This document shows positions 30,293-46,975 of a DNA stretch of 64,000 bases, in pieces. The stretch is from an uncultured Oscillospiraceae bacterium (GTDB lineage Bacteria; Bacillota; Clostridia; Oscillospirales; Acutalibacteraceae). The stretch is from positions 53,556 through 117,555 of the forward strand of contig URGJ01000001.1 in NCBI GenBank assembly GCA_900547445.1. The letters are read 5' to 3'. The translations under genes and the position numbers were made by a program. The notes under the pieces were generated by a model that worked only from the letters and a program-made list of their open reading frames with translations, ran no database searches and was not told the origin of the DNA. The first letter of the stretch is position 1. The number at the start of each line of letters is the position of its first letter.

Positions 30293-30307
30293 ATCATTCC
30301 CACTCGC
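30293..30307. repeat. att-like core repeat D (tcattcCCACTCgc; encodes EWE-TGA on the minus strand)
   Basis: Shares the tcccactc core with repeats at 34282, 46968 and 60054. The reverse complement reads GAGTGGGAATGA, i.e. the guaA C-terminal EWE plus a stop. Confidence 0.35.
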
Positions 30308-30495
30308 TCCCGAAAACTGTGACTTAAACAATTTTGTATGGGTGTTTTTGCTCATATTATCAGGAGTGTTCAGATTATCCGCAAAATACGGACTATCAAG
30401 ATTTTTGTTGTCATCGTGTTGTCACGCCAACAATGATATGATACACGCTAATTGTCGTTTTTTCAATAGATTTTGTAAAAGAAATAACCTCCACA

Positions 30496-31880: not shown

Positions 31881-32722
31881 CCCTCCCCGATTAGTGAAGC
31901 CGTTTGTCTTATGATCCATTTGCCCCACTCACTGTAATATTTAGCATAAAGATGTGTGCTGTCCTCCGATTTGTCGGAAGATAGTCCGCCTGTTTTATCA
32001 TCAAACAGAATATTGGCATCAAGATAAAATTTGCTTTTTGAGTCCGCGAGTTTTGCCAATTCTGCATTTAACCCGTTAATAGCAGTATTGTTTACCACCT
32101 TATCGCTATCCGAACGACTTTTCGTAACGTGCAGATTTGCTTGTATGAAAATAACAGCATCGGATTGTTTGCTTTTAACAAATTCAATCAACTCACTGTA
32201 TTTTTCGATGGTGTTGCTAAATTTGTATCCCACTTCATTGATGCCGAGCATTATATATATTTTACCATACTTTTTGCTATTCAGCAACTCCGTCAAAGTC
32301 ACCTTGCCGACATTGGGAACAGAAACAGGCTTTTTATGAATGTTGTAAACACTCATTCCCACCGTGCAAAAATAGTCTGCTCCGTCGATACCTGCATACT
32401 CCATAAGTCCCACTGTCCTTGAATCACCGATGAACAGAGCATCATCCATAGAAATATCGCTGTTTGGTTGCGTTGTTATATTTTCCGAAGTTGATGTTTC
32501 TGTTATAGATGTACTCGCTTCGTAATCACCCTCTGTTTGCGTAGAGTTTGTATCTTCTAAGGTGTCTTTGGGATTCGATATAATATCGTTTTGCGTTACC
32601 GAATTGTTGTCGGTTTCTGTGTCGGAGCTTGAAGATGGGGTTTGCCAAAAAAACATCAACAGTATAACAGCAACAACTAAAAAACATAAGGACAAAAGAG
32701 TAACTAAATTTGACTTTTTCAT
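31877..32722 (-). CDS. Membrane-anchored SGNH/GDSL hydrolase (O-acetyltransferase/esterase partner of the MBOAT)
   Basis: N-terminal TM anchor, Ser/Thr-rich linker, and the GDS block LFIGDSRTVG. Confidence 0.7.
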   Translation of the reverse strand: MKKSNLVTLLSLCFLVVAVILLMFFWQTPSSSSDTETDNNSVTQNDIISNPKDTLEDTNSTQTEGDYEASTSITETSTSENITTQPNSDISMDDALFIGDSRTVGLMEYAGIDGADYFCTVGMSVYNIHKKPVSVPNVGKVTLTELLNSKKYGKIYIMLGINEVGYKFSNTIEKYSELIEFVKSKQSDAVIFIQANLHVTKSRSDSDKVVNNTAINGLNAELAKLADSKSKFYLDANILFDDKTGGLSSDKSEDSTHLYAKYYSEWGKWIIRQTASLIGEG

Positions 32723-32734
32723 TTTCTTTACCTC

Positions 32735-34192
32735 TCAAAATCTAAAATATAAAAACGGATCATCAAAGCCACGGTACATACAATATACACTTGCACAGAA
32801 AATCACCGATAACAGCAGGCATATAACAACACGGCTTTTAATTCGTTTCAAAATACGAAACGGCAATCTTGTCGAGAACAATATACCTGCGATAAAAAAC
32901 GAATAAAATAAGTTTAAGTATTTTAGGTAGTCATACCTAAATATCGACCATACGCCTTGACCGAAAAACGGGAACAACCGAGTAAAAAACACCCAAAGCT
33001 GCCCTATATCATCAATAGCGAATATTGCCCAAGTAATCGGGATCAATATGAACATATAAAGGTGGGCAATGACAGGCATTTTATTAAGATATTTTCCTAT
33101 AAAGAATTTTTCAAGCATTATGATAATGGACAGAACTGTTCCCCATAAAACGAAATTATATCCTGCACCGTGCCACAACCCCGTAAGCAACCATACGATA
33201 AGCAGATTTCTGACAGTAGCAATTTTGCCGTTGCGATTTCCGCCAAGAGGGATATATACATACTCTCTAAACCAAGCCCCAAGTGTTATATGCCACCGCC
33301 GCCAAAATTCTGTCATTGTAAGGCTTGTATATGGGTGGTCAAAGTTTTTCGGTAGCTTGAATCCGAGCATTTTTCCAAGACCTATAGCCATCAGGGAGTA
33401 ACCGAAAAAATCAAAATATATTTGAAAAGAAAATGCTATTATCGCCATCCACGCAAGCGGTGTAGATATGCTTTCAAACCCAATCGCACAAGTCTGCGAC
33501 CACAGTTTTCCGATAGGATTAGCAAGTAGCACTTTTAATCCTAATCCGAAAATAAATATGCCGATACCTCTCAGCACAGATGATGTTTTGATTTGCCGCT
33601 TATACAGTTCTTTTTCCACTTGACCGTAAGTAACAATCGGACCGGCAATGAGCTGTTCGAACATTGAAATATATATCGTATATTTAAGCAAACTTTGTTG
33701 TGCCTTTGTAGTTCCTCGGTAAACATCAACAATATATGAAATTCCTTGAAAGGTGTAAAAGGAAATGCCAATAGGCAATACAATATCTGCCGTAAAGTTA
33801 AAACTCGGATTGAGCCGACCAATTTCGTTTATTACAAAACCGGAATACTTAAATGCGGCCAGACTGATTAAGTGTAAACTTATGCCTATGGTCAATAATA
33901 CCTTCTTGTGTGCCGAAAATTTTTCAATCCATACACCAACCACAAAATCCGCAATAATACTTAGTATAAACACTATAAAATGTTCGGGGTTATGGATCGT
34001 GCCCACAAAGTAAAAGCACAAACTTCCAATAAATAATATAGAATTCTTTAATTTATCAGGTACAATATAGTAGCACCCGAAGAATATCGGCATAAATATA
34101 AAGATAAATTGTAAACTACTGAATACCATAACCATACCATCATTTCGCTGTTCTGATATATAGATGCACGGGCAATATAAAAGGTGACACAC
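32735..34192 (-). CDS. MBOAT family membrane O-acyltransferase (DltB/AlgI/PatA-like)
   Basis: Conserved MBOAT histidine block FWRRWHITLGAWFREYVYIPLGGNR. Polytopic. The true start is probably the internal MVMVFSSLQF (~34129-34135). Confidence 0.8.
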   Translation of the reverse strand: MCHLLYCPCIYISEQRNDGMVMVFSSLQFIFIFMPIFFGCYYIVPDKLKNSILFIGSLCFYFVGTIHNPEHFIVFILSIIADFVVGVWIEKFSAHKKVLLTIGISLHLISLAAFKYSGFVINEIGRLNPSFNFTADIVLPIGISFYTFQGISYIVDVYRGTTKAQQSLLKYTIYISMFEQLIAGPIVTYGQVEKELYKRQIKTSSVLRGIGIFIFGLGLKVLLANPIGKLWSQTCAIGFESISTPLAWMAIIAFSFQIYFDFFGYSLMAIGLGKMLGFKLPKNFDHPYTSLTMTEFWRRWHITLGAWFREYVYIPLGGNRNGKIATVRNLLIVWLLTGLWHGAGYNFVLWGTVLSIIIMLEKFFIGKYLNKMPVIAHLYMFILIPITWAIFAIDDIGQLWVFFTRLFPFFGQGVWSIFRYDYLKYLNLFYSFFIAGILFSTRLPFRILKRIKSRVVICLLLSVIFCASVYCMYRGFDDPFLYFRF

Positions 34193-34273
34193 AAATTTAT
34201 TTTTTCAAAAAAATTAGCGGCAAGGATTTCTCCCTGCCGCCGTTTAACTGTTATATTAACTTGAAAACCGCCT

Positions 34274-34289
34274 GATTCTACTCCCACTC
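34274..34289. repeat. att core repeat C (left junction of integrative element 2; gattctacTCCCACTC)
   Basis: Reverse complement reads GAGTGGGAGTAG (EWE-stop). Located between a chromosomal operon and the arm-type repeats of element 2. Confidence 0.55.
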
Positions 34290-34390
34290 GACGAGGACTA
34301 AACAATTCTGTTTATGTAATTTTGCTTTTCGTTAGTCTCTCTGTTTTGATTTTACGATGTATCTGTATTATCCTGTGCCAAAATGCCCTT

Positions 34391-34420
34391 GTTATCATTT
34401 TGTTATCGTGGTTGATAACA
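34391..34420. repeat. Arm-type repeats GTTATCA x2 (11-bp phasing) plus inverted TGATAAC, at the left end of element 2
   Basis: gttatcattttgttatcgtggttgataac. The same GTTATCAAA motif recurs with 11-bp phasing at 46887-46906, the right end of element 2. Confidence 0.5.
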
Positions 34421-34541
34421 AGAATAATTTCACCGTGGATAATAAGGAAGTGGTATGTGTGTATTATATCGCACTTGACCTCAAATTGCAATATGTTTTT
34501 CAAAATTTACACGCAAGATTGACAAAAAGCGTGCAAACCTC

Positions 34542-34570
34542 TTGCGGTTTAGGGAACAATCTATTATAAT
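34542..34570 (+). promoter_or_regulatory. Candidate promoter for the abiEi-abiEii-hhe operon
   Basis: TTGCGG (34542-34547), 17-nt spacer, then TATAAT (34565-34570). The ATG at 34597 is 27 nt downstream. Confidence 0.35.
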
Positions 34571-34596
34571 ATAAACACGCATAATGAGAATACTGC

Positions 34597-35226
34597 ATGC
34601 AGAAAGTTGGTGGCAGTTTGAGTAAGCACGATATCGTAAACGAAGTATTTAATACAGTCGGTGAAGTTGCAAAGAAATCTGATTTCATTTCTGCCGGACT
34701 GAAAGAACAAGATATTTATACACTTTTTAAGCAGGGATATATTGAACGTGTCAGGTATGGTTATTATAAACTGTCTGTTGGGGATGAACTCAAAGAAGAA
34801 GTTCTCCTTTCCAAATTGATGACACAAGGCATCGTTTGTGTTGAATCGGCGCTGTTTTATTACGGTTACAGCGATTTTGCACCCCGTGAGTGGACGATTA
34901 CCGTTCCCCGTTCCTATTCCAGAACCGTAAAAGCCATACAGGAAAAAGTACCGGTAAAGGCGTATTATGTTCAGAACGATATGTACCACCTCGGTGAAAC
35001 AACAGGTACTTTTAACGGTGTCACACTTCCCGTATATGACCGTGAACGCACTATCTGTGACTGTTTCAAATACCGTACGAAGCTGGATAATGAGATATTT
35101 AATAAAGCAATCAACGCCTATGTATCAGACGAAAAGAAAAACCTTGCCACCCTTTCCAAATATGCAAAAGAAATGGGCGTTTATAAAAAAATGATGAATG
35201 TAATGGAGGTACTGCTTAATGGCTGA
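34597..35226 (+). CDS. abiEi: AbiEi-family antitoxin / transcriptional regulator (type IV toxin-antitoxin)
   Basis: 209-aa protein with N-terminal wHTH-like and C-terminal AbiEi-type domains. 8-nt overlap with the downstream AbiEii nucleotidyltransferase. Confidence 0.65.
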   Translation: MQKVGGSLSKHDIVNEVFNTVGEVAKKSDFISAGLKEQDIYTLFKQGYIERVRYGYYKLSVGDELKEEVLLSKLMTQGIVCVESALFYYGYSDFAPREWTITVPRSYSRTVKAIQEKVPVKAYYVQNDMYHLGETTGTFNGVTLPVYDRERTICDCFKYRTKLDNEIFNKAINAYVSDEKKNLATLSKYAKEMGVYKKMMNVMEVLLNG

Positions 35227-36115
35227 TATTGCTGCATCTGTGCTTGCACGACTGAAAAATAAGGCTGCCGAAAGCGGAAGAAGTTATCAGCTTTGTCTGC
35301 AGCTCTTTTGCCAGGAAGAATTTCTGCGCCGTTTGGAAAAATCCAAATATGCAGAAAATCTTGTGCTGAAAGGCGGATTGTTTATCTATTCCCTTACCGA
35401 CTTTGACAGCCGAGTAACAGTTGATGTGGACTTTTTGCTCCGCCAAATGCCAAATACGCCGGAGCAGTTAAAAACCGTGTTGGAGGAAATTATTGCAACA
35501 CCTACCGGAAACGACTTTATCACTTTTGAGATTAAAGATATTGCTCCTATTGCTGTTGCCAAAAAGTATGCAGGAATCGGTGCATCGGTGGTCGCCCGCA
35601 TTAAAAACACCAAAACACCGTTCAGTATTGACTTTGGTGTAGGAGATGTCATCGTACCGAAACAGGAAAAACGAAAAATCCCGACACAGCTTTCCGACTT
35701 TGACGCCCCGACAGTAAATACATACTCCCTTGAAACAACCATTGCCGAGAAGATTGACGTTATTCTTAGTCTAATGGAATTTTCAAGCCGAATGAAAGAT
35801 TACTACGATATTTACTATCTTGCCAATAAATTTGATTTTGACGGCAAGGTGCTCACCGAAGCACTTAAGAAAACTTTTGAAAATCGTGGACACACCTTTA
35901 CGGTTGAACAGTTTGAGCAGGTTATGGGCTTTGACAGAGACGGCTCAATGCAAAAGAAATGGAAAGCATTTGTCCGAAAAATTGATACAAAAACCGATGA
36001 TTATGGTACTGTGCTGAAAACAATAAAAGAGTTTCTTACAGAACCGTTTGTAGCGGCAGTCAAAGGTAAAGAGATTATTGACAAATGGTCTGCTTATAGT
36101 GGGAAATGGATGTAA
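35219..36115 (+). CDS. abiEii: AbiEii/AbiGii-family nucleotidyltransferase toxin (DUF1814)
   Basis: Characteristic N-terminus MADIAASVLARLKNKAAESGRSYQLCLQLFCQEEFLRRL, and the block ENLVLKGGLFIYSLTDFDSRVTVDVDF that I take to be the nucleotidyltransferase core. Confidence 0.8.
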   Translation: MADIAASVLARLKNKAAESGRSYQLCLQLFCQEEFLRRLEKSKYAENLVLKGGLFIYSLTDFDSRVTVDVDFLLRQMPNTPEQLKTVLEEIIATPTGNDFITFEIKDIAPIAVAKKYAGIGASVVARIKNTKTPFSIDFGVGDVIVPKQEKRKIPTQLSDFDAPTVNTYSLETTIAEKIDVILSLMEFSSRMKDYYDIYYLANKFDFDGKVLTEALKKTFENRGHTFTVEQFEQVMGFDRDGSMQKKWKAFVRKIDTKTDDYGTVLKTIKEFLTEPFVAAVKGKEIIDKWSAYSGKWM

Positions 36116-39100
36116 TTTTGGAGGTAGTTATGGCAAATATTGACGTTAAATATGATGTTTGGAAAAACAAACTATTGGATTTAGGAAAACGCAATAGATT
36201 GTTGAATTATAAAGATACTGCACGCTCAAATGTTAAAATTGAATACCCCGAGTGCGGCACTCTGTATAATATGATTGTAAAAGAAGAGAACGCATTGGTC
36301 TTTCCTTTTGAATACGACGAAGAAAATTCAGAAATCGAATATGTTTCTAATGTTGAAACTAATAAAAATACCAGTGATTTGCAAAAAGCACTTAGAAATT
36401 TAAGAAATAAGGCAAAGACTGCTATTGAGGAACAAGGTGTAAATGTCTTGTATCTTTCGTTTGGTTTTCTGAAATGGACAGAATCAGAAAACTCCAATCA
36501 GAGTTTTACATCTCCGTTAGTTTTAGTTCCGGTTACATTAACAATCGAATCAATTAAATCTCCATATACTTTAACACTTCACGAAGATGAAATCGTTGTC
36601 AATCCCACCCTTGTTTATAAACTTGAAAATGATTTTGGAATTACTCTGCCTACGTTTGATGAAAACGGGGATATTGACGACTTTCTTGAAGAAGTCAAAA
36701 GAAGTATTACATTAAAGAACTGGTCAGTTACAAAGGATGTTGGGCTGAGTCTGCTTTCTTTTTTGAAAATCAATATGTATTCAGACTTAAACAAACATAA
36801 AGAATCTATCGTTGCTAATCCTATCGTAAGAGCAATAAGTGGTGATGCGTCTGCTATTACCAGAATTTCTGACGAAATGACAGATTTCGATTTTGATAAG
36901 CAGATAAAACCGACTGATGTATTTCAAGTTGTAGATGCCGATGCCAGTCAACAAGATGCTATCATGATGGCGAAAAAAGGCGTTAGCTTTGTTTTACAGG
37001 GGCCTCCCGGCACCGGTAAAAGCCAAACGATTACAAATATAATTGCCGAAAGTCTTGCCGACGGTAAAAAGGTTTTATTTGTTTCTGAAAAGATGGCAGC
37101 TCTTGATGTCGTCCACCGCAGATTATCAAGTGCCGGCTTAGATGATTTCTGTCTTGTTTTACATAGTCATAAGGCAAATAAAAGAAACGTTTTAGACCAA
37201 CTCGGCAAAGTATTGGATCTTAGTCAGAAAAAAGTTAAATTGACTGATGAGGCATACCAAAAATTAAATGTTTTACAAGCAGACAAGGATAAATTAAACG
37301 CTTATGCTGAGCAAGTATATGAAAAAATTGAACCTCTTGGTAAATCAATATATGAAGTGAACGGTATTGTAGCAAACTTAGATAGTTACGATGATTATAT
37401 CTTCGATATTAGCGATATTCGCAATGTGACAAAAGAACAATATAATAAATATAGTTATCTGTTAGCTCAATTTGCTACCACCATTGGAAAAATGACAGAT
37501 GACTTTAAAAACAATCCTTGGCGAGAATGCCACTTAACATCTGTTTCTAACGAGTTTAGACACGATGCAACTTCCCGCCTTAATAATCTTTTGCCTAAAC
37601 TCAAAGATTTTGATGAAAAGTTAGCAGAAGTATTTGTTACACTACATATGGATGTACCGCATACTCTCCAAAATGTGGACCAAATAATTGAAGTGCTAAA
37701 TGTTATTGAATCAGCACAAAAAATCCCATCAGAATGGATACTGACTGATGGAATTCAGCCTTTGTTTGATGAAATTACAAATTGCATCAAACTAAAAAAA
37801 GAACTTATTTCATTGTCAGATAATTTAGCAGATAAATATAAAACAATTCACACAAATGAATCAATAGCGGAGCTTTCTTCTGCTGATTCTTTAAATAATA
37901 CTTCTGCTTTAATAAGCGAGAAACGAAACTTAAAAGAATTAGTTACTTCTACTAAGCCTTATTCTGCTTGGAACACAGATGTAATTGATAGCGTAACAGC
38001 CCTGTTGTCACAGGCTATTGAAACGGCTAATGAAATAAACGCCTTAAAGAATGAACTCCTTGAGGTATATGAACCAACGGTTTTTGAATTGGATTACAAT
38101 GCAATATTAGGACGAATCAAAACAGAATACACCTCGTTTACAAAGGTTTTCAAGAAAGAATACAAACAGGACAAAAAGGCAATACAACTTCATCATAAGA
38201 ATATTGTTAAGAAAATCAGCGATGAAGAAATGCTGTCTCTTGTCGAGAAGCTTCGCAAAATAGACGAAACAAGGCAATGGTATGCCGATAACGCTAAATC
38301 ATTGAGGGAATATTTTGGCGAAGATGTTGTCGATGAAAACACAGATTATACTGTTTATCAAAAACGTATTATAGCATTCAACGCCATAAATAATGCAATT
38401 AAAATCATTAACGATATGGTTGAAATTTTCAATCACATTAGTGATAAGGAACAATTATTGCAAGAACATTACCAATTCTTGTATAACGGAATTTTATCCG
38501 ACTGGGAGGCAATCCGTAGTGCTTTAAATTGGGCAATATCATTTAAGGACAGCATATATAAAATAAACGTTTCAGATTATTTTGTCAAAGCGGTATGTGA
38601 TGGAAATGAATTCATTGACATCTGCAAACAAGAAAATGATACTTTGGAAGAACTTAAGCGTACGATATCTTTCGAGTACAGGTGGTTTGTATCAAATTTT
38701 GCTCATCCTGAAATATTTGATACAATAGAACTTCCCGATCTTTATAATAGGTTAAATGCTTGCGTTAACGGACTGTTTTTATTGGAAGAGTGGATCGATT
38801 TCAGTTCCGCAAAAGCAAACTGTATAGCCGGCGGATTGAGCAGTTTTATAGAGGTTATTGAACAACACAATATTCCGTCACAGGATATTATACCGATTTT
38901 CAAGAAGCGTTTCTTCCGCTTGTGGTTGGATGCTGTACTTCCTGAATATCCTGCTGTTTTGAATTTCAGAAGAAAAGTGCAGGAAGCGACCATTGATGAA
39001 TTCACATTGTTGGATAAAATGCAATTTGAAATTGCAAAAGCTCGAATCAAAAGCAAGCTTATTAATGACTTGCCTTCTCTTGAACATTTTACAAATGGTG

Positions 39101-41145
39101 TCGACGAAATAAGCATATTGAAAAGAGAGTTGAATAAGCAACGCAGAATTATGCCAATCAGACGCTTATTTAAAGCTATCCCTAATTTGTTGCTTACGCT
39201 GAAGCCTTGTTTAATGATGTCTCCACTTTCGGTTAGTTTGTTTTTGGAAGCTGAAACATACAAATTTGATATTGTAATTTTCGATGAGGCTTCTCAAGTG
39301 TGCACAGAAAATGCCATTGGTGCAATTTCAAGAGCGAAGCAAGTTGTCATTGCCGGCGATAGCAGACAATTGCCTCCCACAAATTTCTTTCAGGCAGCAG
39401 TGTCGGAAGGTGATTTTGACACTGATGATGACGACGAATTTGACGATTCAGATGCTTATGAATCCATTCTGGATGAAGCAAATATGTTGCCGGAAAGGAC
39501 TTTAAGATGGCATTACAGAAGTAGGCACGAAAGCTTGATTGCTTTTTCTAATGCCAAAATCTACAAAAACAAACTCATTACGTTCCCCTCAAACATAGAA
39601 AAAGTAGAGAATAATGGTGTCGAATACATATATGTAGCAGATGGCTATTATGATCGAGGCGGTAAGAAAGGAAATGTTATAGAGGCTAATAAAGTAGCTG
39701 ATCTTGTATTTAAACATTTCAAAGAACAACCCTATCGTTCTTTAGGTGTTATTGCATTTGGTGAAGTTCAACAACAAGCCATTGAAACTGTAATTAGAGA
39801 AAGAAGAATTCAAAATCAAGAATTTGAGCCGTTCTTTTCAGAAGATAAAGAGGAAGCATTCTTTATAAAAAATCTTGAAAATGTTCAGGGTGACGAAAGA
39901 GATACTATCATTTTCAGCATAGGATATGCTAAGGATGCCGCAGGTGTGTTCAGGATGAATTTCGGACCTCTTAGCAAATCAGGTGGTGAGCGTCGCTTAA
40001 ATGTTGCAATTACTCGAGCAAAATATAATGTAAAACTTGTCGGCTCGATTATGCCTACCGATATCGATATTGATAAAATTAGTTCTGAGGGTCCGAAGCT
40101 GTTAAGAGCGTATATCGATTTTGCAATAAATGGTACACAGGTACTTGAAAGAGAAATAACCGAAAGCGATATTGTAGAGCATGATTCACCTTTTGAGGAA
40201 GCGGTGTATAATTTCCTCGATAGAAAAGGCTATAAACTTGCAACACAAGTAGGATGTTCGGGTTATAGAATTGATATGGCTGTAAAGCATCCTACATTGA
40301 GCGGAATCTATGTTTTAGGTATAGAATGCGATGGTGCCGCTTATCACTCTGCAAAAACTGCCAGAGAACGTGACCGTTTAAGACAAGATGTCCTTGAAAA
40401 TATGGGTTGGAAAATCTATCGTATATGGTCTACCGATTGGATAAAAGATCCAATAACCGAAGGACAAAAACTTGTTGAGGCCATTGAAAATGCTATTGCC
40501 AATTATGGTATAGATGAAGATGCTATTCAGTTGAATTTAACAAACAATACTCAAAATACAAGTGCTGATGATTTTGTAAGCGTTGAAGAAAAAGAATTGT
40601 CGGTTCAATCCACGGAAAACCCTTATGGATTTGAGGAAGCAGAATTGCCGAATTTCTCATCTTTACCTCGTAACAGATATGGATATTTAGAATTAACAGA
40701 TTGTATTATGGAAGTGGTTAATACAGAATATCCTGTACATTACGAATTGCTTTGTCAACGATTAGCTCCTCTGTTCGGAAATGAAAAGGCGACAGTCAAG
40801 ATTCGTCGAGAAGCCGATATAGGCTTGGCACGATTGGGAACAAGAATTGTTCGTAAAGGCGATTTTATTTTCCCGAATGGTTATGAAACAATTCCTGTTC
40901 GTATGCCAAACAGTAGAAAAATTCAACACATCTGTATTGAAGAACTATCTGAAGCAATGTTTAGAGTTTTGCAAACTTGCGTCGGAACTACAAGAGAAGC
41001 GCTTTGCTCGGAAACCACACGTGTTTACGGTTTTAACAGAGCAGGTCAAAATATTTCGTCAGCAATGTCCAATGCAGTAAATGCTTTAATTTCTACAGGC
41101 AGAGTTGAAGAAATTGAAGGAAAGCTAAAAATAAAAGGAGAATAG
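36106..41145 (+). CDS. Giant (1679 aa) DUF4011 / Upf1-like SF1 helicase / Vsr-DUF559-like endonuclease / DUF3320 protein (Hhe/HheA-like defence protein)
   Basis: DUF4011-like N-terminus (MANIDVKYDVWKNKLLDLGKRNRLLNYKDTARSNVKIEYPECGTLYNMIVKEENALVFPFEYDE). Walker A LQGPPGTGKSQTITN. DEASQ-type Walker B VIFDEASQV. VIAGDSRQLPPT. Motif VI NVAITRAKY. C-terminal Vsr-like block GYRIDMAV...ECDGAAYHSAKTARERDRLRQDVLENMGWKIYRIWSTDW. 10-nt overlap with abiEii. Confidence 0.7.
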   Translation: MDVILEVVMANIDVKYDVWKNKLLDLGKRNRLLNYKDTARSNVKIEYPECGTLYNMIVKEENALVFPFEYDEENSEIEYVSNVETNKNTSDLQKALRNLRNKAKTAIEEQGVNVLYLSFGFLKWTESENSNQSFTSPLVLVPVTLTIESIKSPYTLTLHEDEIVVNPTLVYKLENDFGITLPTFDENGDIDDFLEEVKRSITLKNWSVTKDVGLSLLSFLKINMYSDLNKHKESIVANPIVRAISGDASAITRISDEMTDFDFDKQIKPTDVFQVVDADASQQDAIMMAKKGVSFVLQGPPGTGKSQTITNIIAESLADGKKVLFVSEKMAALDVVHRRLSSAGLDDFCLVLHSHKANKRNVLDQLGKVLDLSQKKVKLTDEAYQKLNVLQADKDKLNAYAEQVYEKIEPLGKSIYEVNGIVANLDSYDDYIFDISDIRNVTKEQYNKYSYLLAQFATTIGKMTDDFKNNPWRECHLTSVSNEFRHDATSRLNNLLPKLKDFDEKLAEVFVTLHMDVPHTLQNVDQIIEVLNVIESAQKIPSEWILTDGIQPLFDEITNCIKLKKELISLSDNLADKYKTIHTNESIAELSSADSLNNTSALISEKRNLKELVTSTKPYSAWNTDVIDSVTALLSQAIETANEINALKNELLEVYEPTVFELDYNAILGRIKTEYTSFTKVFKKEYKQDKKAIQLHHKNIVKKISDEEMLSLVEKLRKIDETRQWYADNAKSLREYFGEDVVDENTDYTVYQKRIIAFNAINNAIKIINDMVEIFNHISDKEQLLQEHYQFLYNGILSDWEAIRSALNWAISFKDSIYKINVSDYFVKAVCDGNEFIDICKQENDTLEELKRTISFEYRWFVSNFAHPEIFDTIELPDLYNRLNACVNGLFLLEEWIDFSSAKANCIAGGLSSFIEVIEQHNIPSQDIIPIFKKRFFRLWLDAVLPEYPAVLNFRRKVQEATIDEFTLLDKMQFEIAKARIKSKLINDLPSLEHFTNGVDEISILKRELNKQRRIMPIRRLFKAIPNLLLTLKPCLMMSPLSVSLFLEAETYKFDIVIFDEASQVCTENAIGAISRAKQVVIAGDSRQLPPTNFFQAAVSEGDFDTDDDDEFDDSDAYESILDEANMLPERTLRWHYRSRHESLIAFSNAKIYKNKLITFPSNIEKVENNGVEYIYVADGYYDRGGKKGNVIEANKVADLVFKHFKEQPYRSLGVIAFGEVQQQAIETVIRERRIQNQEFEPFFSEDKEEAFFIKNLENVQGDERDTIIFSIGYAKDAAGVFRMNFGPLSKSGGERRLNVAITRAKYNVKLVGSIMPTDIDIDKISSEGPKLLRAYIDFAINGTQVLEREITESDIVEHDSPFEEAVYNFLDRKGYKLATQVGCSGYRIDMAVKHPTLSGIYVLGIECDGAAYHSAKTARERDRLRQDVLENMGWKIYRIWSTDWIKDPITEGQKLVEAIENAIANYGIDEDAIQLNLTNNTQNTSADDFVSVEEKELSVQSTENPYGFEEAELPNFSSLPRNRYGYLELTDCIMEVVNTEYPVHYELLCQRLAPLFGNEKATVKIRREADIGLARLGTRIVRKGDFIFPNGYETIPVRMPNSRKIQHICIEELSEAMFRVLQTCVGTTREALCSETTRVYGFNRAGQNISSAMSNAVNALISTGRVEEIEGKLKIKGE

Positions 41146-41299
41146 TTATGAAAGACCATATTATTATTGAAAAAGCCAAAGCATCATTGCCTTAAACAAG
41201 TTTAAGGATGGCGATTTTGTATGCGACGACAAAGAGATTAACGATGTCTTAGCGTACAATAAAATCACCCGTGATGATACAGAAAACAACCAATAAAAA

Positions 41300-41336
41300 A
41301 CGGCGGCAGAGAGCAAAATCCCTGCCGCTTTTTTCC
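41300..41336. terminator. Bidirectional rho-independent terminator between the hhe-like gene and tnpV
   Basis: Stem gcggcag (41303-41309) / ctgccgc (41322-41328), then TTTTTTCC, with AAAAAA upstream. Confidence 0.55.
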
Positions 41337-41338
41337 GG

Positions 41339-41716
41339 TTAGGTGTAAATAAAATCTGTATTCACGACCTCGGTGGCTCTGCTGCGGATGTTGTTCATTC
41401 GACCAACCCACGCCATTTGATTGTCCGCCTTGAGTTGTTCGGTCACACCCTCACGCTCTGCCATCTGTTTCACCAGCCGAGAAAACATTTCTTCCGCCTG
41501 TTTGTCAATATCAGCAAGGTAACTGTTTAACTTGCCGCTGGTCAGCAGATTGGCATATAGCACCCTTCGATTTTGCTTGAGGTGTCGCAAATGTCGCTGT
41601 CCCCATATGCCGATTGGCTGTTGTTCCTCAGCGGGTAATGCAAGGTCAGGCAGATAATAATCTCCCTGCAAGGTGTAACGGATCCCCGTTTTTTCGTCTG
41701 TAAAATGCTGTTTCAT
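41339..41716 (-). CDS. tnpV: TnpV-like transposon-encoded small protein (copy 1)
   Basis: ~125-aa protein of the Tn4451 TnpV type, found next to Mob/Pre relaxases in clostridial mobilizable elements. A paralogue at 53927..54307 shares LTSGKLNSYL.DI..QA...FSRLVK..AE.E.VTE.LK. Confidence 0.55.
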   Translation of the reverse strand: MKQHFTDEKTGIRYTLQGDYYLPDLALPAEEQQPIGIWGQRHLRHLKQNRRVLYANLLTSGKLNSYLADIDKQAEEMFSRLVKQMAEREGVTEQLKADNQMAWVGRMNNIRSRATEVVNTDFIYT

Positions 41717-41725
41717 TGTGTTGTC

Positions 41726-42904
41726 CTACCTTTCATCTTTATTATTTCTAAAGCGTTTTTCACGCTGTTTAGACTGTTTTTCCAACTTTGCTCTATCAAG
41801 CAAGTCATAAATTTGTTTATGACCAAATACTTTGTGGAGAAGTTTGTAATCCCTGTTTTCCACACGCAAATTTTCATTTTCTTGTGATAATTTTTCATTA
41901 ACTTTCGATAGCTTCTCGTTTTCACGATATAGGTTTCCGTTTGTGATGTTCAATCTGTGGTAACTGTCCAATGCCTTGAAATATCGTGCAAATAAGGTGC
42001 TGATTAAAGACTTAAATCGGGCTACAAGCGGCTCAACAAACTTTGTTTTATAACTTCTCGCCGACATCATTGCAGGCGGTTCAGGGAGCTGATATTCAGG
42101 CTCATTCATTATACTTTCATCAAGTTTCTGCAAGGCTTTCTCTCCGTTATCGAAGTTCTCAATGCGGTCAGCCATAACACGAAACTCATCTTTTTTCTCG
42201 GCAATTTGATTGTCCAATACAGCGATTTCCTTTTCTCGCTCCTGCTTTTTATAGTCTAAAACAGACAGATGTTTTTCGTGAGTATCCTTGTGTTCCCACT
42301 CAATTCCGTAGCGTTCCATAACAAATGCGAGTGCGGATTTTTCTGCGCTTACCCATTGATTCCACTCGGTATCTCCACGGGTTCCGCCCTTAAATCCTTG
42401 TGCGGCAAGAGCCTGCTTGAGTGATACTCTTGTATCAAGTCCACGCTTGCTTCCGATGGTGAACGGAACAAAATCAATGTGCAGATGTGGTGTTGCTTCG
42501 TCCATATGAAGATGAGCAGAGAACACTTTTAACTGAGGATTGCGTTCCTGAAACCCACGATAGTATTCATCCAAAATCCGTCGTGCAAACTCTCCGTTTT
42601 CGCTTTCTGCGCTCATATTTTCTTTATCGCCTATCTGCAAAATGAGTTCGTGGAACGGCTTTTCTTGCTTTGAATTACGGATTTTTTCATAATAGTTTTC
42701 TATCTTGCGGTCGGCTCTTGTCTGCTTAGAATTATATCTTTTAAGAGCTTCGTCAAACAATTCGTGATAGACATTTTTGATATTTTCATTGCAGTAGTCG
42801 ATATTTAGATGTGTTCGACTACCGTCAATATTTTCCGCTTTGAACTTGCGGCTGTTGTGATTAACCGAGCCTTTACCGACCATTGCACTAATCGTTCTTT
42901 TCAT
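41726..42904 (-). CDS. mob: MobV/Pre-family plasmid recombination/mobilization relaxase (TnpZ-like), copy 1
   Basis: Mob_Pre N-terminus MKRTISAMVGKGSVNHNSRKF and the metal-binding His motif HLHMDEATPHLHIDFVPF. Confidence 0.85.
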   Translation of the reverse strand: MKRTISAMVGKGSVNHNSRKFKAENIDGSRTHLNIDYCNENIKNVYHELFDEALKRYNSKQTRADRKIENYYEKIRNSKQEKPFHELILQIGDKENMSAESENGEFARRILDEYYRGFQERNPQLKVFSAHLHMDEATPHLHIDFVPFTIGSKRGLDTRVSLKQALAAQGFKGGTRGDTEWNQWVSAEKSALAFVMERYGIEWEHKDTHEKHLSVLDYKKQEREKEIAVLDNQIAEKKDEFRVMADRIENFDNGEKALQKLDESIMNEPEYQLPEPPAMMSARSYKTKFVEPLVARFKSLISTLFARYFKALDSYHRLNITNGNLYRENEKLSKVNEKLSQENENLRVENRDYKLLHKVFGHKQIYDLLDRAKLEKQSKQREKRFRNNKDER

Positions 42905-42940
42905 TAAATTTCACATCCTTTCCTTATCCGGCGTAGCCGG

Positions 42941-42986
42941 GGTTCTGTTACTCTTGTCAAGAGTAACGCAAAAGCACTTTTGACAG
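42941..42986. promoter_or_regulatory. Putative oriT (RS_A-like): 46-nt block identical upstream of both mob copies, containing inverted repeat ttactcttg-t-caagagtaa
   Basis: ggttctgttactcttgtcaagagtaacgcaaaagcacttttgacag is identical at 42941-42986 and 55530-55575, while the flanks diverge. It lies immediately 5' of each relaxase gene. Confidence 0.5.
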
Positions 42987-43175
42987 CCTTCTGCCATCAA
43001 AAGCTGCTATTGCGCTCTCCGAGGGGGCGTTGCCCCGTTGTCTGCGGACAACTCCCCAGCAGAGCCGCCCTTTGAAAAGGGCACCCTGCACCCCGCCTAA
43101 ACTTCGTATTGGAATACCTGCCGAAAAAGAACATTGCAAGATTGCGAAAGCCCCCGCCTTTGCAATGTTGCAACC

Positions 43176-44150
43176 TTACAGGTCGCCGCTCTCTTTTTCT
43201 TCGGGTAGTTGCCAATACCACACACTGCCTTCCTTAACAGATCGCACACGCAGAGTTTTCTTTGCTTCATCGAGCACTCGTTTGGAGATACCCAAACTCT
43301 GCGCTTTTTGTAGCAAGGTCTGTTGCGGGTACTTCCCGCCGGATAGGCAGTCAACGATAAGGCTTTCAGCCATATCGGATTTCTTCTCACGACTGACACC
43401 GCTGAGAAGATCGTCGATGGAAATTTCATAATGACCGAGCCATTTGAAGCCGTTGGCTTCACTCAGTTCAAAGGCGATAGGCTTGCCTTCCGGTGCGAGG
43501 GAAGATTTTTGATGTGCCGCCACTCGTATCTCCGGCTTGTCCTTTACTCTGCCGACTACAAGCACGCTTCTTGCAGCTGCTTGAAAGTCTATGGAACCAA
43601 GACCTCTATAATTGGATTTGTTACCCTGTGCCTTGTTTAAGTGTCCCACAAGTATAATCGCACAACGGTATTTGTCGGCGATCCTGCCAAGCTGAGAGAG
43701 AATGGTACGGACTTCATTTGCTCGGTTCATATCTACCTTTGCGCCGATATAGGCTTGCATCGGATCTAAGATAATTACCCTTGCCCCTGTTTCTGCAATT
43801 GCTTTTTCTACTCGCTCGTCAAGCATCGTCAATGTTGCCTCAGATTCGTCGATCACCTTGATTTGTGAGCAGTCAGCATTACCGGCAAGAAGACGGGGCT
43901 TGATGGTATCCCCAAGCCCATCCTCTGCGGTTTGATATATTACCTTGATAGGCTCACGCTCGGTGTCGTCGCAGGGTAGTTTTTCTCCCCTTGACAACAG
44001 AGCCGCTAATCTCAATATCAGTGTTGTTTTACCCTCACCGCCGTCGCCGTGAATGATTGTCAACTTACCGTATGGGATATAGGGATACCACAGCCATTCC
44101 ACTTCTTCGACGGGCACTTCATCCATACTGATGATTTTTAATTCCGCCAT
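43176..44150 (-). CDS. AAA_25-type (RepA/RecA-fold, DnaB-C-terminal-like) ATPase, copy 1
   Basis: Walker A GDGGEGKTTL and Walker B IIILDPM. RecA-like fold. Confidence 0.7.
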   Translation of the reverse strand: MAELKIISMDEVPVEEVEWLWYPYIPYGKLTIIHGDGGEGKTTLILRLAALLSRGEKLPCDDTEREPIKVIYQTAEDGLGDTIKPRLLAGNADCSQIKVIDESEATLTMLDERVEKAIAETGARVIILDPMQAYIGAKVDMNRANEVRTILSQLGRIADKYRCAIILVGHLNKAQGNKSNYRGLGSIDFQAAARSVLVVGRVKDKPEIRVAAHQKSSLAPEGKPIAFELSEANGFKWLGHYEISIDDLLSGVSREKKSDMAESLIVDCLSGGKYPQQTLLQKAQSLGISKRVLDEAKKTLRVRSVKEGSVWYWQLPEEKESGDL

Positions 44151-44287
44151 AGGCGTTGCCTCCTTTCAATTTTTCTCAAAACTATTGAAATTGGAGGAGT
44201 CATAGGTTATAATATTTGCAGTACATTTTTTGAGAAGACTGTTCCGTATCTGCGCCAACAGATACATTGAGAACAGTCTTTTCGGTT

Positions 44288-44620
44288 TTATATGCCATCC
44301 TTTCGCTCCTTCATTCCATATAGCGTGGTGTTAATCTGCTCAATACGATCGAGCAGGTCATCGTGAACATTTGCGCCGGCTTCGATGCGTTTAAGTTCAT
44401 CGAGGACGGCGGCAAGCTCGTTTCGCAGAGCCTTATAAACTCTCGGATTGCCGACCACCGTTATTTGTTGTTGCAGGGCACGAGCACAAAGATAATCTTG
44501 CTTTGTCAGTCCCGATATTCTGACATTACTGTCCAAAACATCAGCCTCCTGTGGCGACATACGAAAAGCGATTGTTTTGCTCCTCCAACGGTTGTGGCGG
44601 TCAAGATTTTTAGCGGACAT
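44288..44620 (-). CDS. Ribbon-helix-helix mobilization accessory protein (MobC-like), copy 1
   Basis: RHH signature RSKTIAFRMSPQEADVLD. AAAGGATGG RBS lies 8 nt before the MSAKN start. Paralogue at 56890..57216. Confidence 0.5.
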   Translation of the reverse strand: MSAKNLDRHNRWRSKTIAFRMSPQEADVLDSNVRISGLTKQDYLCARALQQQITVVGNPRVYKALRNELAAVLDELKRIEAGANVHDDLLDRIEQINTTLYGMKERKDGI

Positions 44621-45698
44621 TTTCAATATCCATCCTTTCATATTCAAGTTTCTTTGCCATTTCTGTCTGTTTTGACGGGAATAAGTGTGCATAGCGATAT
44701 GTGATCTCAATGCTTTCGTGACCGACACGGTCAGCAATTGCCACCGCAGAAAAGCCCATATCTATGAGCAGGGAAATATGGCTATGGCGCAAATCGTGAA
44801 TGCGGATACGCTTTACCCCTGCGGCTCTTGAGCCACGATCCATTTCTCGGTGCAGATAATTCTTTGAAATGGGGAATATACGGTCTTTCTTTTTGTAGCC
44901 GTACAGCATACCGATATAATCCTGCATTTCCTCACAGAGAAACTGCGGCATTTTAATTGTGCGGTTGCTTTTCCTTGTTTTCGGTGTGGTAATGACAGCT
45001 TCGCCGTGCAAACGCTGATAAGATTTGCTGATTGTAACTGTGCCTTTTTCAAAGTCGAAGTCCCCCGCAGTCAGGGCGAGCAACTCGCCCTCACGAATGC
45101 CGCACCAGTAAAGCATTTCAAATGCGTAATAGGATACGGGCTTGTCCATCATTTCATCGGCAAACTTCTTGTACTCTTCTTTCGTCCAAAACTTCATTTC
45201 CTTGCGTTCCTCTGTGCCCATATTACCGGCTTTTGCGGCGGGATTGGAACGAAGGTCATAATGTCTTACAGCGTGGTTAAATATAGCACTAAGCTGATTG
45301 TGGACGGTTTTGAGATAGGTCTGTGAATACGGCTTCTTCTTTTCATCACGAAAAGCGAGCAATTCATTCTGCCAAGCGATTACATCCTTTGTGGTGATCT
45401 CACTGACATTTTTCTTTTCAAAATAGGGTAAAATCTTGGTTTCAATGATATGCTTTTTGGTCAGCCAAGTGTTTTCTTTTAAGCGAGGTTTTATGTCCTT
45501 TATATAAAGCTCAACAAAGGCGGAAAAGTTCATATCCATATCGGCAGCACTTTGCTGCTTAAATACTCGCTCCCACTCCTGAGCCTCTCGTTTGGTTTCA
45601 AAACCTCGCTTACATTTCTGTTTGCGCTCGCCTTTACAATCTACATATCGTGTTAAAACATACCAAGTGCCGTTATCTTCATTTTTATAAACAGGCAT
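44610..45698 (-). CDS. int: Tyrosine-type site-specific integrase, copy 1
   Basis: C-terminal catalytic R..H..R..Y signature in IRIHDLRHSHISLLIDMGFSAVAIADRVGHESIEITYRYAHL. AAAGGAG RBS precedes the MPVYKNEDNGTWY start. Confidence 0.9.
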   Translation of the reverse strand: MPVYKNEDNGTWYVLTRYVDCKGERKQKCKRGFETKREAQEWERVFKQQSAADMDMNFSAFVELYIKDIKPRLKENTWLTKKHIIETKILPYFEKKNVSEITTKDVIAWQNELLAFRDEKKKPYSQTYLKTVHNQLSAIFNHAVRHYDLRSNPAAKAGNMGTEERKEMKFWTKEEYKKFADEMMDKPVSYYAFEMLYWCGIREGELLALTAGDFDFEKGTVTISKSYQRLHGEAVITTPKTRKSNRTIKMPQFLCEEMQDYIGMLYGYKKKDRIFPISKNYLHREMDRGSRAAGVKRIRIHDLRHSHISLLIDMGFSAVAIADRVGHESIEITYRYAHLFPSKQTEMAKKLEYERMDIENVR

Positions 45699-45885
45699 TT
45701 TTGTTCTCCTTTCTGGCTTGGTACAGCCTTTCATTAAAATACTCTCTGTTGACTCTTCCTGAGATGGTAATGAAACCTTTACGCTTCAGTTCCCCGTTCA
45801 GCTCTCGTATGACTTTGTAGGCATACGAGGTTGAAACATCGAGAATCTCAGCGACTTCTTCCACACGCATAAACTGTTGTCCCAT
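45685..45885 (-). CDS. xis: Excisionase / HTH DNA-binding protein (Xis), copy 1
   Basis: 66 aa, MRVEEVAEILDVSTSYAYKVIRELN HTH. Overlaps the integrase start. Confidence 0.7.
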   Translation of the reverse strand: MGQQFMRVEEVAEILDVSTSYAYKVIRELNGELKRKGFITISGRVNREYFNERLYQARKENKNACL

Positions 45886-46096: not shown

Positions 46097-46139
46097 GTGG
46101 CTTGCAAGAAAATACTAAACTTTTTTGTTTTGATTTCTC

Positions 46140-46168
46140 TTGACACCACTAAACATTTCTGCTATACT
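46140..46168 (+). promoter_or_regulatory. Sigma-70 promoter for the XRE repressor (element 2), back-to-back with the xis-int promoter
   Basis: TTGACA (46140-46145), 17-nt spacer, TATACT (46163-46168). AAGAGGTG RBS and ATG at 46199. Confidence 0.6.
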
Positions 46169-46198
46169 ATATGTGAACACTTGAAAAGAGGTGCTTTT

Positions 46199-46729
46199 AT
46201 GGCTATTAGCGAAAGAATTCACTTTTTCCGAAATCTGCGTGGAATGACACAGAAATATCTCGGTTTACAACTCGGTTTTCCCGATAAATCTGCTGATGTT
46301 CGCATGGCACAGTATGAAACAGGTTCCCGTACTCCAAAAGCGGATATTACCGCAGCGTTGGCACAAGTTTTGGATGTTGCACCCGAAGCATTGAACGTGC
46401 CCGATATTGACAGTTACATAGGTTTGGCTCACACTTTCTTTGCGCTTGAAGACATTTATGGCATTACCGTCAGCGAAGCCGATGGGGAACTCTGCCTTAA
46501 AGTTAATGCCGACAAAGGCAAGGATGCCGCAGAGGTTATCCGTATGCTTGCCGCTTGGAACGAACAGAAAGCCAAACTCGATTCAGGTGAGATCGACAAG
46601 GAAACCTACGACCAATGGCGCTATCACTATCCCAAGTTCGATACAACTGGCGGATGGGTTAAAGTTCCTTCCCAAGAACTCAGCGATGCTATGGTCGAAG
46701 CGTTCAAAGACCGTTTGAAACCGGACTAA
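46199..46729 (+). CDS. XRE-family (cI-like) HTH repressor, copy 1
   Basis: HTH_3 N-terminus MAISERIHFFRNLRGMTQKYLGLQLG. The track ORF starts at 46097, but the RBS supports 46199. Confidence 0.8.
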   Translation: MAISERIHFFRNLRGMTQKYLGLQLGFPDKSADVRMAQYETGSRTPKADITAALAQVLDVAPEALNVPDIDSYIGLAHTFFALEDIYGITVSEADGELCLKVNADKGKDAAEVIRMLAAWNEQKAKLDSGEIDKETYDQWRYHYPKFDTTGGWVKVPSQELSDAMVEAFKDRLKPD

Positions 46730-46743
46730 GAAAAAAGACGACA

Positions 46744-46960: not shown

Positions 46961-46975
46961 TGATTATTCCCACTC
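46961..46975. repeat. att core repeat B (tgATTATTCCCACTC), junction between elements 2 and 1; duplicate of the guaA 3' end
   Basis: 13/13 identity with 60048-60060, the real guaA stop region. The reverse complement reads GAGTGGGAATAA, i.e. EWE-stop. Confidence 0.7.

Follow-up and report, generated by a model that had tools for sequence, protein, structure and literature searches.

What connects a very large helicase-nuclease gene to the AbiE toxin-antitoxin pair directly upstream of it? The three genes lie in the window, the whole 64,000-nt stretch of DNA analysed here. The initial annotation took them for one unit with overlaps of 8 and 10 nt, and proposed that the helicase is wired to AbiE, either through regulation by AbiEi or as part of a composite abortive-infection module. 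We consider it probable that the locus is an AbiE-led, swappable defence slot: a constant AbiE module, serving maintenance and supplying the promoter, followed by exchangeable cargo, here the helicase-nuclease gene as third cistron (Table 1).

Table 1. Features of the mobilizable element IME-1 and its cargo slot (window coordinates).
Feature	Position	Strand	Basis or remark
IME-1 left junction	34277..34289	.	att core CTACTCCCACTC, degenerate copy of guaA 3' end
Predicted abiE promoter/operator region	34506..34600	+	read from sequence
IR1 (predicted)	34506-34514 / 34529-34537		TTTACACGC / GCGTGCAAA
abiE -35 (predicted)	34542-34547		TTGCGG
abiE -10 (predicted)	34565-34570		TATAAT
IR2 (predicted)	34574-34581 / 34594-34600		AACACGCA / TGCATGC; overlaps abiEi start codon
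abiEi, predicted antitoxin and autorepressor, 209 aa	34597..35226	+	PADLOC PDLC02225 E=9.5e-60, full length
abiEii, DUF1814 nucleotidyltransferase, predicted toxin, 298 aa	35219..36115	+	PF08843 E=7.8e-46; PDLC02288 E=1.5e-92
14-nt spacer, slot left breakpoint	36116..36129	+	cargo gene's own Shine-Dalgarno GGAGG, 36119-36123
Variable cargo slot, here filled by the helicase-nuclease gene	36117..41318	.	backbone homology breaks
PDC-S37-family helicase-nuclease, 1671 aa	36130..41145	+	
DUF4011	36169-36624	+	Pfam 2.4e-42
SF1B helicase core	36940-40047	+	AAA_11 4.3e-18; AAA_12 7.2e-16
~600-aa insert within helicase core	37675-39486	+	
Vsr-like PD-(D/E)xK nuclease	40192-40485	+	MTES_1575 3e-38
Two winged-helix domains	40627-41142	+	after disordered linker
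GC-rich hairpin, slot right breakpoint	41303..41328	.	T-runs on both sides; between helicase gene and convergent tnpV
tnpV	41339..41716	-	PF14198 E=1.7e-49; conserved right-hand frame of cargo slot
Mobility genes	41726..45734	-	Pfam and gene calls in related locus L192
Mob_Pre relaxase	41726-42904	-	Pfam
AAA_25 ATPase	43176-44150	-	Pfam
NikA-like gene	within 44288-44737	-	Pfam
Tyrosine integrase	44610-45734	-	Pfam; gene callers elsewhere give 362 aa
HTH_3 protein, last gene of IME-1	46097..46729	+	weak HTH_3 match E=4e-4, under Pfam cut-off
IME-1 right junction, left junction of tandem IME-2	46963..46975	.	att core ATTATTCCCACTC

The first two genes are an AbiE pair, as the initial annotation had recognised. 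AbiEi was matched over its full length by PADLOC, a Pfam search of its product giving no match, and AbiEii was matched by both, with nucleotidyltransferase motifs I-IV, as defined in PMC3985639, intact (G52G53-x15-D69VD71 with R65, K178, K193DYYD197). The 8-nt overlap of the two genes (ATGGCTGA) stands and is reproduced by gene calls in related contigs. A possible alternative start of abiEi, TTG 34618, would give a protein of 202 aa. The pair shares with the type IV AbiE systems of L. lactis and S. agalactiae (Dy et al. 2014, PMC3985639) the combination of AbiEi (COG5340) and AbiEii (DUF1814), overlapping genes, motifs I-IV, two inverted repeats around the promoter, and carriage by an integrative mobile element, in which AbiE would be expected to aid maintenance. 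AbiE has been described as autorepressed through its promoter inverted repeats, GTP-binding, plasmid-stabilising and located on ICEs (PMC3985639; PMC13064643). The S. agalactiae AbiEi binds two inverted repeats covering -35/-10/+1 (PMC3985639), and the operator layout predicted here is parallel, although it departs in both half-sites and spacing from the 23-3-23 operator reported for that system. A 201-aa AbiEi allele has an identical promoter layout with different half-sites; it is 36% identical to the window AbiEi in the N-terminal part and 70% in the C-terminal part. Operator half-sites and the AbiEi N-terminal domain change together between alleles. In its classical description AbiE consists of two genes, whereas here a third co-directional gene follows within 14 nt, in a position with exchangeable cargo.

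The longest reading frame of this third gene (36106-41145, 1679 aa, plus strand) overlaps abiEii by 10 nt, but that overlap is an artefact of choosing the longest frame. The real start is ATG 36130, with GGAGG 6 nt upstream of it. Gene callers in more than ten related contigs leave 14 nt between the abiEii stop and the helicase start, the relatives of full length have 1663-1675 aa, and DNA homology to a stand-alone, 94%-identical helicase begins at 36118, 3 nt past that stop. A gap of 14 nt is still operon-tight, and the three genes form a single, tight, co-directional unit, as first described.

The domain architecture proposed for the large protein was recovered by Pfam searches, with DUF4011, a helicase core resembling Upf1/IGHMBP2/Sen1 and a nuclease whose structural model superposes on Vsr; the DUF3320-like tail (22.7 bits, cut-off 25) and DUF559 (0.0011) fall slightly under threshold. 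The helicase motif strings GPPGTGKSQT, DEASQ, GDSRQLPPT and NVAITRAK, and the string quoted for the nuclease fold, are all present. The architecture had been said to match Hhe (Gao et al. 2020, cited through PMC13223576). The kinship holds, and the large protein has in common with PDC-S37 and Hhe the DUF4011 N-terminus, SF1 helicase, Vsr/MTES_1575 nuclease and DUF3320-like tail, but the best PADLOC model is PDC-S37 (1469 bits, nearly end to end) rather than Hhe (637 bits, the best stretch covering only residues 952-1449). PDC-S37 likewise outscores Hhe in five family members ranging from an archaeon to Klebsiella. Because its middle insert is longer and more divergent than that of the PDC-S37 consensus, the window protein matches the profile in three stretches. 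PDC-S37 is a candidate single-gene defence family, for which a literature search gave no paper and no experimental validation. The core genes of P. aeruginosa include a large DUF4011 gene (PMC10250203), so a defence role of the family stays putative. The gene stands alone family-wide, in contrast to its place here as third cistron of an AbiE operon.

Comparison with related elements revealed what kind of place this is. Backbone homology to two of them, L100 and L106, breaks off at 36093-36116 and picks up again at 41319, with flanks 93-94% identical. The slot is framed by abiEi-abiEii on the left and by the hairpin and convergent tnpV on the right, and in 52 related loci the slot is followed by tnpV. 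Judged from its sequence, the hairpin would act as a bidirectional terminator; an equivalent hairpin occupies the slot/tnpV junction in nearly all slot variants printed, and is absent there from L130 and L138. The 52 slots catalogued hold 26 gene-cluster combinations, including restriction-modification genes (type III Mod+Res, type I/IIG methylases with S subunits, an EcoRI-type methylase), Shedu, Kiwa, ApeA-HEPN, GmrSD, AAA_15/21 and unknown genes. Three or four slots, based on weak TnpV matches (55-75% identity), appear nearly empty. As the loci are a biased sample, several coming from look-ups of identical AbiEii proteins, counts of cargo types are not frequencies.

It seems likely that the left arm of IME-1 works as one operon driven from the abiE promoter, which the two inverted repeats would bracket, with AbiEi acting as DNA-binding autorepressor and antitoxin and AbiEii as a GTP-type nucleotidyltransferase toxin. 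The slot opens directly past the abiEii stop codon and closes at the hairpin, a predicted terminator common with tnpV; AbiE and tnpV are constant features of the element family, and slot content would be swapped by recombination. The upstream DNA that belongs to the helicase module is just 12 nt long, and the gene brings no more than its own ribosome-binding site; it is therefore most likely made as third cistron of an AbiEi-repressed transcript. A consensus scan of the plus strand between 34743 and 36596 found no promoter-like site, and a terminator scan found no convincing terminator in the operon interior. Regulation of the helicase by AbiEi, one of the two original proposals, thus remains the best reading, although we infer both co-transcription and control of the cargo.

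If the abiEii-tnpV site were instead a permissive landing place, adjacency would carry no regulatory meaning: AbiE would have no influence, and each cargo would use its own promoter, perhaps inside the 3' end of abiEii, where one could escape a simple consensus scan such as ours. Variable hotspots are common on mobile elements, the cargo is highly diverse, and two slots have longer gaps behind abiEii, of 44 and 92 nt, all of which fits. We nevertheless think this unlikely. In about 43 of the 48 occupied slots, 11-17 nt separate the abiEii stop from the start of the first cargo gene, nearly all cargo genes are co-directional with abiE, the helicase brings just 12 nt of upstream DNA, and the only consensus promoter within 1.4 kb ahead of 36130 is that of abiE.

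A composite system, in which AbiEii and the helicase-nuclease form one abortive-infection machine, is already disfavoured and appears distinctly improbable. The helicase might sense phage DNA and free or activate the toxin, or AbiEi might also serve as antitoxin or regulator of the nuclease; the close spacing, the single promoter region and the conservation of the trio as a unit, ~93-98% identical in DNA at several insertion sites, would suit such a machine. All copies belong to one element lineage, however, so the recurrence reflects spread of the element and not repeated selection. The 94%-identical helicase elsewhere is free of AbiE, and a 75% relative has HTH_17 upstream in its place. No AbiE was found by tblastn anywhere in 80 diverse helicase loci, no AbiEii by Pfam in 89 ORFs lying upstream on the same strand in these loci, and no helicase in any of 80 loci with AbiEii 83-93% identical to ours. 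AbiE is intact in L092 and L094, where just 145 aa of the helicase are left, and in L090, where a frameshift splits it. Many unrelated defence cargoes, or nothing, stand behind this AbiE pair at the very position of the helicase. Neither the specific wiring of helicase to AbiE nor the composite module was borne out. The swappable slot would rather stack two autonomous modules: AbiE, which would stabilise the element and may be able to abort infection, and the helicase-nuclease, a separate anti-phage or anti-plasmid effector that presumably moves along foreign nucleic acid and cleaves DNA.

Mobile elements with hotspots for defence cargo include P2/P4 phages and the SXT ICE (hotspot 5), and BrxR/CapW-type WYL proteins are conserved regulators upstream of diverse defence systems. 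As in those hotspots, conserved mobile-element flanks here enclose rapidly exchanged anti-phage cargo; in contrast to them, the left flank is the stop codon of a toxin gene, the cargo consists of downstream cistrons of a toxin-antitoxin operon, the hosts are gut Oscillospirales-type Clostridia, and the carriers are small guaA-targeting mobilizable elements and one serine-recombinase variant. As with BrxR/CapW, one conserved DNA-binding regulator gene stands ahead of many unrelated defence systems, but here it is the antitoxin of a toxin-antitoxin pair, accompanied by its toxin, and would regulate the cargo only by our reading. SXT also carries a toxin-antitoxin module implicated in maintenance, as here: MosAT, which is AbiE-like (mentioned in PMC3985639).

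That the trio is cargo of a mobilizable element was confirmed. The tnpV, Mob_Pre and integrase genes adjoin it, and the same trio with tnpV/mob is found at at least four unrelated insertion sites, with a decayed copy also beside guaA. The helicase gene is more AT-rich than the mobility genes, as noted before, with a GC of 0.356 against 0.48 in both tnpV and AAA_25, and 0.51 in guaA. Its carriage on such an element might suggest a transfer or replication helicase (TraI- or Rep-like) serving the element, a reading we find scarcely credible: relaxase and Rep domains are absent and an Upf1-like SF1B core and Vsr-like nuclease present, IME-1 possesses Mob_Pre, NikA-like and AAA_25 genes of its own, sister elements carry RM, Shedu, Kiwa or nothing in its place, and family members occur in non-mobile contexts across many phyla.

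IME-1 is an integrative mobilizable element of ~12.7 kb (~34283-46975), with the abiE-helicase block as its left arm. The 3' end of guaA is the integration site of two such elements in tandem, IME-1 and IME-2, and besides the two junctions of IME-1 the att core recurs at 30293-30305 and 60049-60061, the latter being the guaA 3' end. Matches to the window begin at 34279-34286 in five different insertion contexts, marking the left border; the right end probably lies at ~46975, judging by the att repeats, the tandem neighbour and a GC shift. Tn4451/Tn4453-type mobilizable transposons and guaA-targeting IMEs occur in Firmicutes, and IME-1 shares with them TnpV and a Mob_Pre-type relaxase, cargo adjoining tnpV, site-specific insertion into the 3' end of guaA, and accretion in tandem. 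It differs from Tn4451/Tn4453 in having a tyrosine integrase instead of TnpX (L103 and L104 have a large serine recombinase) and in carrying defence genes, not antibiotic resistance. In locus L093, the neighbouring element has a gene related to the HTH_3 gene of IME-1 at its corresponding end.

On the sequence comparisons made here, the abiEi-abiEii-helicase trio represents a defence-cargo slot in one of its states of occupancy, with the AbiE pair as the constant leader. The initial annotation had proposed an operon that specially wires a Hhe-like helicase-nuclease to an AbiE toxin-antitoxin pair, possibly as a composite abortive-infection module. An operon-like unit carried on a mobile element is what we also find, but the special wiring and the composite system are not supported.

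Features of the locus and of the neighbouring mobile elements (window positions)
Feature	Position	Strand	Remark
att core variant ATCATTCCCACTC	30293-30305		4 kb left of IME-1
att core ATTATTCCCACTC	34277-34289, 46963-46975, 60049-60061
IME-1 left junction	34279-34289
Predicted abiE promoter	34542-34570		TTGCGG-17-TATAAT, read from sequence
abiEi (ORF1)	34597-35226	+	AbiEi by PADLOC
abiEii (ORF2)	35219-36115	+	DUF1814 nucleotidyltransferase
ORF3 as longest ORF	36106-41145	+	coordinates of the initial annotation
IME-2 HAD hydrolase	47131-47964	-
IME-2 Pua-like + metallophosphatase protein	47954-49555	-
IME-2 AlwI-type endonuclease	49542-51512	-	AlwI-type RM
IME-2 D12 methylases (two)	51526-53513	-
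IME-2 TnpV	53927-54307
IME-2 Mob_Pre	54332-55663
IME-2 AAA_25	55742-56893
IME-2 tyrosine integrase	57218-58360

All three open reading frames lie where they were first placed, on the + strand, and the first two were correctly named. The product of ORF1 matches the PADLOC AbiEi model over its whole length (PDLC02225, E=9.5e-60; residues 10-208 on profile positions 6-196 of 198); a Pfam search of ORF1 returned no family match. ORF2 encodes AbiEii (Pfam PF08843, E=7.8e-46, 157 bits; PADLOC PDLC02288, E=1.5e-92). The four catalytic motifs defined by Dy et al. 2014 (PMC3985639; hG[G/S]x15DhD plus Arg, the Lys of motif III and +DxxD as motif IV) are intact, as G52G53-x15-D69VD71, R65, K178 and K193DYYD197. 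The two genes overlap by 8 nt, as first described, but the 10-nt overlap claimed between abiEii and the helicase gene depends on a start at 36106 that we reject. GGAGG stands 6 nt ahead of an in-frame ATG at 36130, gene callers place the helicase start 14 nt past the abiEii stop in more than ten related contigs, full-length relatives measure 1663-1675 aa, and DNA homology with a stand-alone relative of 94% identity starts at 36118. The two genes are thus separated by a gap of 14 nt. The block is AT-rich, as had been remarked, with a GC content of 0.356 in the helicase gene against 0.48 in tnpV, 0.48 in the AAA_25 gene and 0.51 in guaA.

Profile searches of the large protein gave DUF4011, AAA_11, AAA_12 and MTES_1575 well over threshold, with DUF559 slightly under it and DUF3320 at 22.7 bits against a cut-off of 25, and every motif string quoted for the protein is present. 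Among solved structures IGHMBP2, Sen1 and Upf1 are nearest to it in sequence, which makes the helicase core SF1B/Upf1-like. An insert of about 600 residues parts Walker A (residue 291) from Walker B (residue 1052, in the numbering of the 1671-aa product). Two regions of the protein were modelled; the C-terminal 351 residues (pLDDT 83) fall into three parts, a disordered linker among them. That the protein might be a TraI- or Rep-like helicase of the element itself, a concern raised at the outset, is dismissed by its domain content and by the variability of the slot.

The likeness to Hhe holds for the architecture, as Hhe carries the same DUF4011, SF1 helicase and Vsr-like endonuclease in a single polypeptide, but not for the identity. 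The top PADLOC model is PDC-S37 (PDLC05009; E=0, 1469 bits, near full length, in three stretches reaching profile position 1545 of 1550). Hhe (PDLC02194) comes second with a partial match of 637 bits, whose best stretch sets residues 952-1449 on profile positions 1276-1769 of 1911, so that the protein falls short of a best or full-length match to the Hhe profile. PDC-S37 also ranked over Hhe in five relatives, from a methanogen MAG, Chitinophaga, Streptomyces, Pseudomonas and Klebsiella, with PDC-S37 scores of 1212-2090 bits. We therefore replace the Hhe label by that of the PDC-S37 family, related to Hhe. The helicase family is very large and spans many phyla, archaea and plasmids included; a large DUF4011 gene belongs to the core genes of P. 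aeruginosa (PMC10250203). Hhe is traced to Gao et al. 2020 (through PMC13223576) and is not in Vassallo et al. 2022; a literature search on PDC-S37 returned no paper mentioning it.

The link between AbiE and the helicase is not specific. By tblastn, AbiEi or AbiEii occurred in 0 of 80 helicase loci from representative genomes, and among 89 ORFs that lie upstream on the same strand in 73 of the 80 loci, Pfam detected no AbiEii; the neighbours there are heterogeneous. The helicase was likewise found in 0 of 80 metagenome loci with an AbiEii 83-93% identical. PDC-S37 has no conserved partner and behaves as a single-gene system; in the window the gene sits inside an AbiE operon. The helicase of 94% identity stands alone with a DUF6338 gene downstream, and a relative of 75% identity has a small HTH_17 gene upstream in place of AbiE. 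The adjacency itself recurs, but only with AbiEii variants of at least 96% identity and as the same element, at no fewer than four unrelated insertion sites; a decayed copy of the trio adjoins guaA in the related locus L081. Natural variants show that the modules are independent: the helicase is split in one related locus (L090) and reduced to 145 aa by an inserted integrase element in two others (L092 and L094), where AbiE is intact. As each module is autonomous and the cargo is exchangeable, we reject the composite system.

The insertions in L092 (8040-14605) and L094 (8332 onward) break the helicase at about codon 145-148 (window position ~36572). The interrupter is a tyrosine-integrase element with CBASS (SMODS, SAVED and E2-like) and NgoMIV-type RM: a candidate defence gene has itself been hit by the insertion of a defence element.

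AbiEii relatives are numerous, with more than 569 metagenome stretches and about 8000 protein clusters. Elements that encode an AbiEii of 92-95% identity are homologous to this one and share its convergent tnpV and mob genes, but the genes in between differ entirely. In pairwise DNA comparisons the homology passes through abiEii, ends at 36093-36116, and restarts at 41319, within a hairpin just beyond the tnpV stop. Identity is 93-94% in the left end and tnpV-mob and 84-85% in the abiE part. We catalogued 52 loci with tnpV downstream of abiEii, which clustering resolved into 26 gene-cluster combinations. The helicase is present in 8 of the 52 and a type III-like Mod+Res pair in 17, often with DUF6680 and two unannotated genes. 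None of these counts is a frequency, since some of the loci were collected by looking up identical proteins. By PADLOC and Pfam, some slots hold type I/IIG methylases and S subunits, alone or together with Shedu or Kiwa; others carry an EcoRI-type methylase set, ApeA-HEPN, GmrSD, AAA_15/21 ATPases or unknown genes, and three or four are near-empty (19-536 nt). Conserved flanks (84-94%) around variable, defence-enriched content identify the slot as a mobile-element defence hotspot. As it is filled elsewhere with RM, Shedu, Kiwa and similar systems, the position lends PDC-S37 indirect, location-based support as a candidate defence gene.

The cargo genes are nearly all co-directional with abiE. 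The first of them begins 11-17 nt past the abiEii stop, with a strong Shine-Dalgarno ahead, in about 43 of 48 occupied slots, and a GC-rich hairpin precedes tnpV in nearly every slot whose right junction was inspected. The AbiE-slot-tnpV module is also present in an element with a large serine recombinase (related loci L103/L104).

Several recurrent slot genes carry no Pfam annotation (loci L100, L106-L111, L113, L124 and others; clusters C2, C3, C13 and C14/C15). They include a 307-aa and 179-aa pair after type III-like Mod/Res, a protein of about 505 aa, and a 232-aa protein paired with a 773-aa DEAD/ResIII helicase, and their slot position makes them candidate defence genes. Downstream of the stand-alone 94% helicase is a DUF6338 gene (198 aa; L082, 11686-12282), and a DUF6338 gene also closes the cargo of a type III RM-filled slot (L116, 14918-15511); this small gene seems to travel with defence cargo.

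The helicase module has only 12 nt of upstream DNA of its own. A consensus scan of the + strand found no promoter-like site between 34743 and 36596, and a terminator scan found none convincing before 41303. These results point to translation of the helicase from the abiE transcript, and control of the helicase by AbiEi is plausible. The predicted abiE promoter is flanked by two inverted repeats, IR1 (34506-34537) and IR2 (34574-34600), the second of which covers the abiEi start codon. In the published model AbiEi represses its operon through an N-terminal winged helix that binds to inverted repeats of the promoter (PMC3985639, PMC13064643). A 201-aa AbiEi allele has the same operator layout with different half-sites, and the half-sites co-vary with the AbiEi N-terminus; compared with this allele AbiEi is of two-part character, 36% identical in its N-terminal part and 70% in its C-terminal part. 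The pattern between the 201-aa and 209-aa alleles fits the published repression model.

A mosaic patch at 34471-34826, comprising the promoter/operator and the N-terminal half of abiEi, has been exchanged as a unit between elements otherwise 93% identical, from which the alleles of 209 aa and 201 aa result. The pattern suggests an exchange of operator-regulator specificity, perhaps one that keeps co-resident elements from cross-talk. The abiEi start is ambiguous: ATG 34597 lies within IR2 and has no clear Shine-Dalgarno, and an alternative TTG at 34618 after GGTGG would give 202 aa, which fits the 201-aa allele and one gene call (L091).

Taken singly, AbiE, the PDC-S37/Hhe-type helicase-nuclease and the guaA-targeting mobilizable element are known components. 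It is the organisation that appears undescribed, in that a TA operon's stop codon forms the left boundary of a site where defence cargo is exchanged, and the cargo consistently follows as downstream cistrons. This TA-led layout with exchangeable cargo appears to vary the theme of mobile-element defence hotspots in a new way; literature searches on Hhe with Vsr, on HheA, and on AbiEii with helicase or hotspot turned up no account of the AbiE-helicase arrangement. For annotators the locus is a warning that AbiE plus helicase is not a new composite system. It also offers a compact search for new defence genes, namely whatever sits between abiEii and tnpV. If AbiEi controls the cargo, the locus would provide a simple, testable case of a TA module as expression platform for interchangeable immunity genes, and one that would concern abundant gut Clostridia.

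A further and rather doubtful step is to see AbiEi-AbiEii as a portable driver, whose autoregulated promoter and toxin together serve as a common control and fail-safe for whichever defence genes stand 11-17 nt behind abiEii, the AbiE-slot-tnpV module being swapped among mobilizable elements of different recombinases. Were this true, expression of the cargo would follow the TA feedback loop, the toxin would act as its back-up upon element loss or transcription shut-off, and the slot would be a ready source of new defence genes such as the 307/179-aa pair, the ~505-aa protein and the 232-aa protein with its DEAD helicase.

The block was rightly placed as cargo of a mobilizable element. On its right side the slot is followed by tnpV and by genes for a Mob_Pre relaxase, an AAA_25 ATPase, a NikA-like protein, a tyrosine integrase and an HTH protein; the 12.7 kb of the carrier, IME-1, contain no T4SS genes. 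IME-1 thus has an integrase and a relaxase without a conjugation apparatus, and att repeats from the guaA 3' end; its right end is putative. At its rightmost position the att core forms the guaA 3' end (GMP synthase, E=7e-178). An RNA gene as the att site is dismissed, since Rfam and tRNA scans of the window found none. A second mobilizable element related to the first, IME-2, occupies 46976-60061, with TnpV 62%, Mob 76% and integrase 69% identical and without an AbiE leader. The two related elements and the guaA-derived att cores indicate tandem accretion of guaA-targeting mobilizable elements in the window. Relatives bear the names of Ruminococcus, Oscillospiraceae, Acutalibacteraceae and Clostridium MAGs from gut and rumen.

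Further left, the att copies at 30293-30305 and 34277-34289 bracket DUF3298, ECF sigma, GDSL and MBOAT genes, and in other genomes about 110 nt like 30198-30306 directly abut the left end of the element. The stretch 30293-34289 may be what is left of an element, or a relic of an att flank. A long run of minus-strand genes at 1575-19947 includes an ORF of 1927 aa (7335-13118).
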